Shown here one piece after another: positions 30,717 to 31,140 of a stretch of 64,000 nucleotides of DNA (positions within the stretch are counted from its first letter, which is position 1; each line of letters opens with the position of its first letter). The position numbers and the translations under genes are program-made. The notes beneath the pieces were generated by a model. The model was given only the letters and a program-made list of their open reading frames with translations. It was not told where the DNA came from and did no database searches. The DNA comes from Piscinibacter terrae (GTDB lineage Bacteria > Pseudomonadota > Gammaproteobacteria > Burkholderiales > Burkholderiaceae_C), in contig NZ_QUSW01000007.1 in assembly GCF_003852895.1 (NCBI RefSeq), positions 231,411 to 295,410 of the forward strand, read 5' to 3'.

Positions 30717-31023
30717 TCTCTATATGGATAGATCGCTAGCGAATATTCTAGCTTTTGATTGATCGATGGGTGACTGTCGATTTGGTTGAAATGAAAGAAA
30801 TCCATTTGGATCAACGAGTTAACTCCACTTTTCAGGCGCCGGGGGTAGGCTGGCACGCTGCCTGCAATATCTCTCGCATCTGACACGAAGTTGGAACGCT
30901 CACAGGTCAGAGGTTCGGGTCAACACCCGCCTCGCCGGTGCAAGGGCCCTGCATCTGCAGTTGGAGGCTTGCATGCCGCGTCCACCGGAAGGTCGGGTTG
31001 GACATCTCTGGTGAGCCGGAAAC

Positions 31024-31140
31024 GGTTCGGGTTCGATTCCCGTCATGCCGCCAGTTCTGTAGCTCAGACGGTAGAGCAGCCTCCAAAAGAGGTCGGTCGC
31101 GGGTTCGACTCCCGCCGAACAACTTTGGCCTCCAAAGCCA
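31024..31140 (+). pseudogene. cluster of tRNA-derived remnants (tRNA-Trp-like pseudogene 31054-31124 plus isolated Trp anticodon stem-loop copy 31127-31139 and a duplicated T-arm 31024-31046)
   Basis: TAGCTCAGACGGTAGAGCAGC-CTCCAAAA-GAGG...GCGGG-TTCGACT-CCCGC with broken anticodon/acceptor stems; ggcctccaaagcc repeats the tRNA-Trp anticodon arm; ggttcgggttcgattcccg has duplicated GGTTCG. Confidence 0.35.

Follow-up and report, generated by a model that had tools for sequence, protein, structure and literature searches.

A predicted tandem tRNA-like element in the leader of SPFH-RtcB RNA-repair operons

What are the tRNA-like pieces that lie between rtcR and the SPFH/band-7 gene of an RtcB RNA-repair operon in Piscinibacter terrae, the remains of tRNA genes or parts of an RNA with a role in the operon? 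We addressed this question in a 64,000-nt stretch of contig NZ_QUSW01000007.1 (the window; all coordinates are positions within this whole stretch). A preliminary description of the locus had pointed to three pieces, namely a tRNA-Trp-like gene, an isolated copy of the Trp anticodon arm and a T-arm, and had taken them for tRNA-Trp-derived remnants adjacent to rtcR that might serve as decoy or inducer transcripts or might be debris from the integration of a tRNA array. All three are present in the sequence. Our analysis places them in and directly behind a pair of tRNA-like modules that stand in tandem and are embedded in a structured 5′ leader of ~480 nt (30895-31378). By analogy with known tRNA-like RNAs, we think it somewhat more probable than its negation (a probability of roughly 0.55) that this is a leader RNA of the SPFH-RtcB operon that is processed like a tRNA and acts as an RNA partner or scaffold of the SPFH protein.

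Results

Two tRNA-like modules lie in tandem upstream of the SPFH gene

The first module is a minimal tRNA-like unit that lacks a D-arm. In the window its acceptor is formed by GG(A)CAT (31000-31005), which pairs with ATGCC (31045-31049), and encloses a linker, CTCTGGTGA (31006-31014), a mini-hairpin, GCCG-GAAA-CGGT (31015-31026), and a T-arm (31027-31043, CGGG/TTCGATT/CCCG) that is a perfect T-loop hairpin and gives sub-hits to the transfer-messenger RNA (tmRNA) and YrlA models; a discriminator (G31050) and an encoded CCA (31051-31053) follow. In orthologues the acceptor has 6-7 bp, and its sequence varies freely yet remains paired (GGCCAT/ATGGCC, GGTGATG/CATCACC, GGTGCCG/CGGCACC, GGGCGGC/GCCGCCC, GGCAAG/CTTGCC and CGTGAC/GTCACG are among the variants). 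A linker of ~10 nt containing GG replaces the D-arm, a 4-bp hairpin with a GNRA tetraloop replaces the anticodon arm, and a canonical T-arm comes next, with N-CCA directly after the acceptor in ~59 of 76 sequences. The T-arm of this module is the one that had been described as carrying a duplicated GGTTCG: the arm is real, but the duplication is absent from relatives and arises in the window because the 3′ strand of the GNRA hairpin (..CGGT) abuts the T-stem (TCGGG).

The second module, a cloverleaf, begins right after the CCA of the first. Its score against the Rfam tRNA model lies above the gathering score of 29 bits (E = 0.0015 over the whole 64-kb window), and the orthologue in locus L004 reaches 52.9 bits; ARAGORN makes no tRNA call at 31054-31121 of the window. 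The acceptor consists of 5 bp and one bulge (G31054 to C31057 and G31059 pair with C31116 to C31120), the D-arm (31062-31077) and the T-arm (31099-31115) are intact and canonical, and the anticodon-like arm (31079-31093) has 5 bp and a 5-nt loop, CAAAA, which makes the earlier characterization of this piece as having collapsed anticodon and acceptor stems next to intact D- and T-arms a fair one. Orthologous cloverleaves have an acceptor of 4-6 bp, an invariant D-stem, a covarying anticodon-like stem, a variable region and a T-arm, and their anticodon-like arm is capped by a GNRA tetraloop or else by a canonical 7-nt loop, in which almost any "anticodon" occurs. The "anticodons" that ARAGORN reads in orthologues are those of Met, Ile, Thr, Glu, Val, Lys, Phe, Leu, Ser, Asn, Cys and Gly. 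Because they differ from one orthologue to the next or give way to tetraloops, the anticodon region is probably not used for decoding.

Two identities considered for the cloverleaf were rejected. A canonical decoding tRNA is ruled out by the want of a 7-bp acceptor and a 7-nt loop in the window, by the 4-6 bp acceptors of the orthologues and by the lack of a conserved anticodon identity. A derivation from tRNA-Trp, as the preliminary description had it, does not hold up in comparison with the tRNA genes of the neighbouring array, with 79% identity to tRNA-Trp versus 75-76% to the tRNAs for Val, Lys, Phe, Met, Asp and Gln.

ARAGORN labels the orthologous cloverleaf as an ordinary tRNA gene in loci L001, L003-L052 and L077-L080 (for example at 5641-5714 of L004 and 5636-5709 of L009). 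Genome annotations of these bacteria therefore probably count it as a genuine tRNA, and their tRNA gene counts are likely to be inflated, since many orthologues receive ordinary tRNA calls with arbitrary anticodons.

Behind the cloverleaf of the window stands an optional hairpin that resembles an anticodon arm, TGGC-CTCCAAA-GCCA. As the preliminary description had noticed, it includes a stretch of 13 nt, GGCCTCCAAAGCC (31127-31139), that is identical to part of the anticodon arm in the array's tRNA-Trp (~26407-26419). By a rough estimate, ~0.01 such 13-mer matches between the leader and the 18 tRNAs would be expected by chance; the match may be due to chance or to a local copying event. What relatives carry at this position is a hairpin of 4-5 bp with a 7-nt "CT NNN AA" loop of varied "anticodons", a tetraloop hairpin, or nothing. 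The idea that the extra hairpin is in general a copy of an anticodon arm from its own locus was discarded: even at best, own-locus matches differ at 4-6 of 17 nt, no fewer than matches to unrelated loci, and the exact 13-mer occurs in the window only.

Position, strand and structure of the element are conserved

We gathered 80 Burkholderiales loci using the SPFH protein alignment as the anchor; the SPFH proteins are 73-83% identical to that of the window. SPFH is therefore present in 80 of 80 loci by construction, and the scope of the sample is the element in the company of SPFH rather than away from it. With 31020-31145 as the nhmmer query, 74 of the 80 loci contain the element; it has the orientation of the SPFH gene and lies 213-399 nt upstream of its start. 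A covariance model of the tandem unit, R1, finds it in 78, and the contigs of the remaining two end before the leader. The cloverleaf of the window ends at 31121, 310 nt upstream of the SPFH start codon at 31431, and the end of the whole element as used in the nhmmer search lies 286 nt upstream of it. With R1 the tandem unit of the window (30993-31123) scores 88.9 bits (E = 2e-21). Scores are 85-142 bits in 76 loci, 56-71 bits for the divergent copies in L078, L055 and L058, and 59.6 bits for the contig-cut copy in L029, and genuine tandem tRNAs of the arrays score at most 75 bits.

The predicted helices are maintained by compensatory changes. In an alignment made with MAFFT without structure fitting (n = 52), 94.9% of cells are paired and 25 of 34 pairs have changed on both sides; none of 500 shuffles reaches these values, and slid partners are paired in 38-45% of cells. 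When sequences are instead fitted to R1 (n = 76), 96.4% of cells are paired and 26 of 33 pairs have changed on both sides, again with none of 500 shuffles reaching the values and with 37-46% pairing of slid partners. We note that the sequences of the MAFFT alignment were chosen for perfect pairing of the first acceptor, and helices 1 and 2 are therefore biased in it, whereas the fitted alignment takes in all 76 hits and leans towards the model. In the 17 sequences left out of the MAFFT alignment 5-6 of 6 pairs are still formed. All helices covary except the invariant D-stem, giving support to the acceptor, anticodon-like and T helices.

The element is also found in more distant relatives. A distant DNA search located it on chromosome 2 of Burkholderia multivorans, where the order is rtcR on the minus strand, a TGGCAC sigma-54 promoter, a T-arm hairpin with the tRNA-like element, SPFH and rtcB, without rsr and without a tRNA array. 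In Photobacterium, at 41% SPFH identity, the tandem module is kept (75 bits).

Three further SPFH loci deserve mention. At a Firmicute SPFH locus (Subdoligranulum variabile, L086, 37% identity) the interval 4644-4712, ~290 nt upstream of SPFH, holds a hairpin with a GNRA cap and two T-arm hairpins in succession; a D-arm and an anticodon arm were not detected, and the hairpins may represent the element in strongly reduced form. Plasmids of Citrobacter freundii (L083) and Escherichia coli STEC639 (L084) carry (rtcR-)slipin-RlaP islands between rluF/DUF3811 and lysC, without rtcB. Their upstream gaps of ~450-530 nt score only 10.8 and 13.5 bits, respectively, with the tandem model, and a clear T-arm, TGGGTTCGATTCCCA, is visible there. 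A phage origin was considered and dropped, the SPFH scan of viral contigs having yielded one locus only.

The modules are part of a larger structured leader

A conservation profile of 74 leaders shows that conservation comes in discrete blocks from ~30895 to 31378, on both sides of the tRNA-like pair. The 5′ domain contains the blocks ACGCTCACAGGTCAGrGGTTCGGG, CGCCGGTG and CATGCCGCG as well as hairpins, and RNAalifold (36 sequences) finds compensatory changes in 18 of its 29 predicted pairs. In the 3′ domain the corresponding figure is 29 of 40 predicted pairs (42 sequences). This domain includes an invariant hairpin, GGTC-GAAA-GACC (31153-31164), contains a block GCTGTAACGGCACC at 31364-31377, and is closed ~55 nt before the SPFH start codon by a long-range helix between GCCG (31169-31172) and CGGC (31371-31374) that is invariant in 40-42 of 42 sequences.

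A scan of both strands of the leader with Rfam 15 at permissive E-values returned only tRNA above threshold, and the 5′ and 3′ domains matched nothing; matches to SAH riboswitch, snoRNA and Tymo-TLS models were dismissed as noise. A protein-coding reading of the region (open reading frames at 30891-31214 on the plus strand and 30900-31298 on the minus strand) was likewise rejected because its changes take the form of paired substitutions and of insertions or deletions of 1-2 nt in loops, which is not how a coding sequence evolves.

A sigma-54 promoter precedes the leader in rtcR-linked loci

Among the 24 loci linked to rtcR, 22 have a TGGCAC-N5-yTGC motif exactly 34 nt upstream of the first conserved leader block, CTCACAGG; the same motif is found at that place in 2 of 50 loci without rtcR. 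No sigma-70-like site was found in 30600-31500 of the window. Judged from its sequence, the promoter that drives the leader and operon of the window is the RtcR-dependent sigma-54 promoter at 30851-30866, from which transcription would start near 30877. The tRNA-like pieces are not directly adjacent to rtcR, as had been stated, but lie 300-400 nt beyond its start codon, past the divergent promoter and inside the 5′ leader of the operon.

In loci without rtcR (for example at ~5405-5445 of L009, and in L006 and L014) a conserved inverted repeat, GCGCCTGAGCTGA....GCTCAGGCGC, overlaps the stop codon of an HNH endonuclease gene, and behind it a conserved stretch, GAGTCTGCyGTGAAAGGCrAACGCTCACAGG, runs into the leader. 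Roles as a terminator, processing site or promoter region are conceivable for the repeat and the adjoining stretch; the sigma-54 motif is absent from the HNH-stop/leader junction of these loci.

SPFH is the constant partner of the element

By tblastn, rtcR is found no more than 6 kb away in 24 of the 80 loci, mainly in Acidovorax, Delftia, Hydrogenophaga and Rhizobacter, rsr (with YrlA) occurs in one locus (L044) besides the window, and RtcB follows SPFH in ~69. Where rtcR is missing, a same-strand HNH endonuclease gene precedes the leader (44 loci), with a same-strand array of as many as 20 tRNA genes upstream of HNH in at least 33 loci, so that the synteny array, HNH, leader, SPFH and RtcB recurs in at least 33 Burkholderiales loci (L003-L047, L072, L077 and L079). 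The rtcR-linked loci of Acidovorax, Delftia and Burkholderia have the element and no tRNA array. Since rtcR occurs in so few loci, rsr in one other, and the array is absent from Acidovorax and Delftia, these neighbourhoods identify SPFH(-RtcB), and neither rtcR nor the array, as the constant partner. An RNA dedicated to RtcR would be expected to co-occur with rtcR, which the element does in the 24 loci only; what is essentially confined to rtcR-linked loci is the sigma-54 promoter.

The window has a hybrid layout: the array, 2.6 kb upstream of the leader element, and HNH are followed by an inserted rtcR with its sigma-54 promoter and then by the leader (Table 1). On the plus strand the order of the operon is SPFH, rsr, YrlB-like/YrlA, rtcB, RlaP and rtcA. 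The YrlB-like RNA, directly upstream of YrlA, is probably a YrlB-type RNA because it carries the GCGAAUGC motif and a T-arm and lacks a D-arm.

Table 1 Features of the repair locus and of the leader in the window
Feature	Position	Strand	Basis and remarks
tRNA array, 18 genes	25633-28408	+	ARAGORN
HNH endonuclease gene	28460-29041	+	tblastn with the HNH protein of L009, 78% identity at 28487-29038
rtcR	29100-30716	- (divergent)	CARF and sigma-54 AAA+ activator; Pfam RtcR (E = 4.8e-83), Sigma54_activat
sigma-54 (RpoN) promoter, TGGCAC-gctgc-CTGCA	30851-30866	+	Read off the sequence
5′ domain of leader	30895-30995	+	Conservation profile; RNAalifold
tRNA-like module 1	31000-31053	+	Minimal, without D-arm; acceptor covariation across loci
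tRNA-like module 2, b7a-tRNA-type cloverleaf	31054-31121	+	Rfam tRNA, 34.8 bits; model R1; covariation
Optional anticodon-arm-like hairpin	31126-31140	+	Includes 13-mer of tRNA-Trp anticodon arm
3′ domain of leader	31151-31378	+	Conservation profile; RNAalifold
SPFH/band-7 (slipin) gene	31431-32570	+	Pfam Band_7 (E = 1.3e-29)
rsr (Ro60 orthologue)	32597-34192	+	Pfam vWA_Ro60 and TROVE
YrlB-like RNA gene	34445-34545	+	Sub-threshold full-length match to Rfam YrlA, 37.7 bits
YrlA gene	34557-34689	+	Rfam YrlA, 81.1 bits (gathering score 69)
rtcB	34711-35934	+	Pfam RtcB
RlaP nucleotidyltransferase gene	35966-36793	+	Pfam RlaP
rtcA	36765-37832	+	Pfam RTC

The cloverleaf fits the description of the predicted b7a-tRNA

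A tRNA-like RNA called b7a-tRNA (Burroughs and Aravind 2016, Nucleic Acids Res), which is absent from Rfam, is described in a passage of Wang et al. 2018 (bioRxiv 10.1101/312249) as being encoded next to band-7 and RtcB, and occasionally Rsr; the same passage relates that the 2016 prediction proposed it as an RNA partner of the band-7 protein. Going by sequence and setting, the second module is an instance of this RNA, already predicted in 2016, and it fits the description on every testable point: it is a tRNA-like cloverleaf, it lies on the same strand next to SPFH/band-7, and its neighbourhood is of the RtcB repair type, with rtcB, RlaP and rtcA downstream. Like b7a-tRNA as that passage presents it, it is a non-coding RNA beside SPFH/band-7 in RtcB repair operons that occasionally include Rsr and YrlA, as they do in the window. 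The locus differs in that the cloverleaf is the second of two tandem modules, the first of which lacks a D-arm and has an encoded NCCA, in that both modules lie inside a structured leader of ~480 nt, and in that the copy in the window is more degenerate than most orthologues. Set against this secondary description of b7a-tRNA, the upstream module with its CCA end is possibly new, and so is the large structured leader.

Likenesses to other known RNAs are partial. YrlA (RF02553) also mimics tRNA, with a T-arm and a D-arm nearly identical to those of tRNA, and also sits in RtcR-controlled rsr-rtcB operons; in Mycobacterium smegmatis RNase P cleaves it, and it bears CCA (Chen et al. 2014, PMC4201824). 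The order of a T-arm, ~16 nt and a D-arm produces a partial match to the YrlA model at 31026-31077. The element nevertheless has no closing, Ro-binding stem and no GNCGAA motif, each of its modules is closed by its own acceptor and is not circularly permuted, it occurs mostly without rsr, and the window has separate, genuine YrlA and YrlB genes (34445-34689). We therefore rejected membership in the YrlA family, as the match covers model positions 30-81 only and reaches 24.7 bits (22.1 bits in L004) against a gathering score of 69. The tRNA-like domain of tmRNA and tRNA minihelices share with the first module an acceptor stacked on a T-arm, a GG-containing substitute for the D-loop without a D-stem, and a 3′ NCCA, but the element lies inside an mRNA leader and has neither an mRNA-like domain nor pseudoknots nor a conserved G3:U70, and the Rfam tmRNA model matches the T-arm only (15 nt, 13.6 bits). 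As for the genomic setting, a linkage of long tRNA arrays (L-arrays) to HNH and rtcB is reported for cyanobacteria (Santamaria-Gomez et al. 2021, PMC8421152). The window and at least 33 related loci show it with same-strand arrays of up to 20 tRNA genes, so the array-HNH-rtcB linkage is not new. The cyanobacterial study makes no mention of SPFH or of a tRNA-like leader, and the leader described here also occurs without an array.

Discussion

Our findings are consistent with a leader RNA that would be handled as a pre-tRNA. An activity of the RNase P type would recognize the acceptor/T-arm stacks and the encoded NCCA, and processing at the acceptor boundaries would free one or two stable tRNA-shaped RNAs and part them from the SPFH mRNA. 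In RtcB-mediated repair the freed RNAs might then serve the SPFH protein as its cognate partner or as a scaffold, in analogy to YrlA/Y RNA with Ro60. The idea of processing is suggested by the covarying 6-7 bp acceptor that the first module carries on its T-arm, by the frequency of N-CCA behind it and by the precedent of YrlA.

Several observations weigh against this proposal. The cloverleaf has an acceptor of only 4-6 bp and no 3′ CCA and is therefore perhaps a poor substrate for RNase P, and the copy in Photobacterium is without CCA altogether. The copy in the window is among the most eroded (88.9 bits compared with up to 142 bits): both acceptors are bulged (an A in the first, a T in the second), the first module, weaker than most, has a T-stem of 4 bp with a T.T pair, and the anticodon loop of the second has 5 nt. 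According to the passage in Wang et al. 2018, b7a-tRNA itself was still without experimental validation, and it is by this secondary description, not by the 2016 original, that we judge the match. Finally, a model in which a tRNA mimic is simply released leaves the large conserved 5′ and 3′ domains unaccounted for; they fit a cis-acting leader equally well.

Because these flanking domains are as conserved as the modules, a purely cis-acting role is a serious alternative, if in our estimate a somewhat unlikely one. The whole ~480-nt structure would then control the operon, be it as an element for processing or stability or as a sensor for tRNA-binding factors or ribonucleases that sets the translation of SPFH and RtcB, and no RNA would act in trans. 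The location in the 5′ untranslated region at a fixed distance from promoter and start codon, the covarying domains on either side of the tRNA-like pair, and the long-range helix shortly before the start codon would all be expected of such a leader, and the element is never detached from SPFH in our sample, which is itself anchored on SPFH. On the other hand, we see no alternative pairing of the terminator/antiterminator kind and no sequestering of the ribosome-binding site, the AAGGAG lying outside the helices predicted by RNAalifold. Moreover, the T-loop, the invariant D-stem and NCCA point to tRNA-handling enzymes, which usually cut an RNA free, and YrlA provides a precedent for a trans-acting tRNA-like RNA in the same type of operon.

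The remaining explanations go back to the preliminary description. One takes its idea of decoy or inducer transcripts further, to a decoy, sentinel or inducer RNA: the modules would be cut by tRNA-damaging anticodon nucleases and so soak up a toxin, or yield fragments with 2′,3′-cyclic phosphates that activate RtcR through its CARF domain in a positive feedback. RtcR is indeed activated by tRNA halves that end in a cyclic phosphate, and the authors of that work suggested YrlA's tRNA-like domain as a competitive inhibitor of the nuclease (Hughes et al., PMC7790460). The leader of the window is under an RtcR/sigma-54 promoter, many orthologues retain 7-nt "CU NNN AA" loops of varied identity, and an extra anticodon-arm-like hairpin follows the second module, in the window with its exact tRNA-Trp 13-mer. 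The pieces thus do lie in a structured RNA downstream of the sigma-54 promoter of an RNA-repair operon, as functional transcripts might, but the specific tie to RtcR and its CARF domain finds no support in co-occurrence, with no rtcR within 6 kb in 56 of the 80 loci. The target site of such nucleases is not conserved, either, since in whole clades (Acidovorax and Delftia; the window likewise) a GNRA tetraloop or a 5-nt loop has taken the place of the anticodon loop; except in the window, the extra hairpins resemble the tRNAs of their own loci no more closely than chance would have it; and Salmonella YrlA was not cleaved by the damage-induced nuclease (PMC7790460). We regard this explanation as distinctly unlikely in general, and RtcR binding or a decoy role as a minor possibility for rtcR-linked loci. 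The other explanation, that the pieces are decaying tRNA pseudogenes or debris from the integration of the neighbouring array, could appeal to the 18-gene array close upstream, to the same-strand arrays ahead of the leader in related loci and to the truncated stems of the window's copy. The comparative data nonetheless refute it: 78 of 80 SPFH loci, array-free, rtcR-linked loci of Acidovorax, Delftia and Burkholderia included, agree in position, strand and structure of the element, each variable helix shows compensatory substitutions, and the flanking domains are conserved too; recent copying of one mobile element is countered by the range of SPFH identities and by the many substitutions in the RNA.

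To what was predicted for b7a-tRNA, the present analysis adds a covariance model by which the element can be told from tandem tRNAs, the exact boundaries of the modules, a fixed 34-nt promoter spacing, and a CCA-ended minimal module that predicts specific products of RNase P and of the CCA enzyme. We would put forward only tentatively, as an idea with the odds somewhat against it, that b7a-tRNA is one module of a larger, undescribed multi-domain leader RNA of ~480 nt whose core consists of two tandem tRNA-like units, the first with an encoded NCCA. Were the idea correct, the first module would be a substrate for RNase P as well as for the CCA-adding enzyme, and possibly for aminoacylation, its CCA end would suggest a link to charging or to the presentation of substrates to RtcB, and SPFH-RtcB systems would carry a large dedicated RNA of a complexity comparable to that of other orphan large bacterial RNAs.

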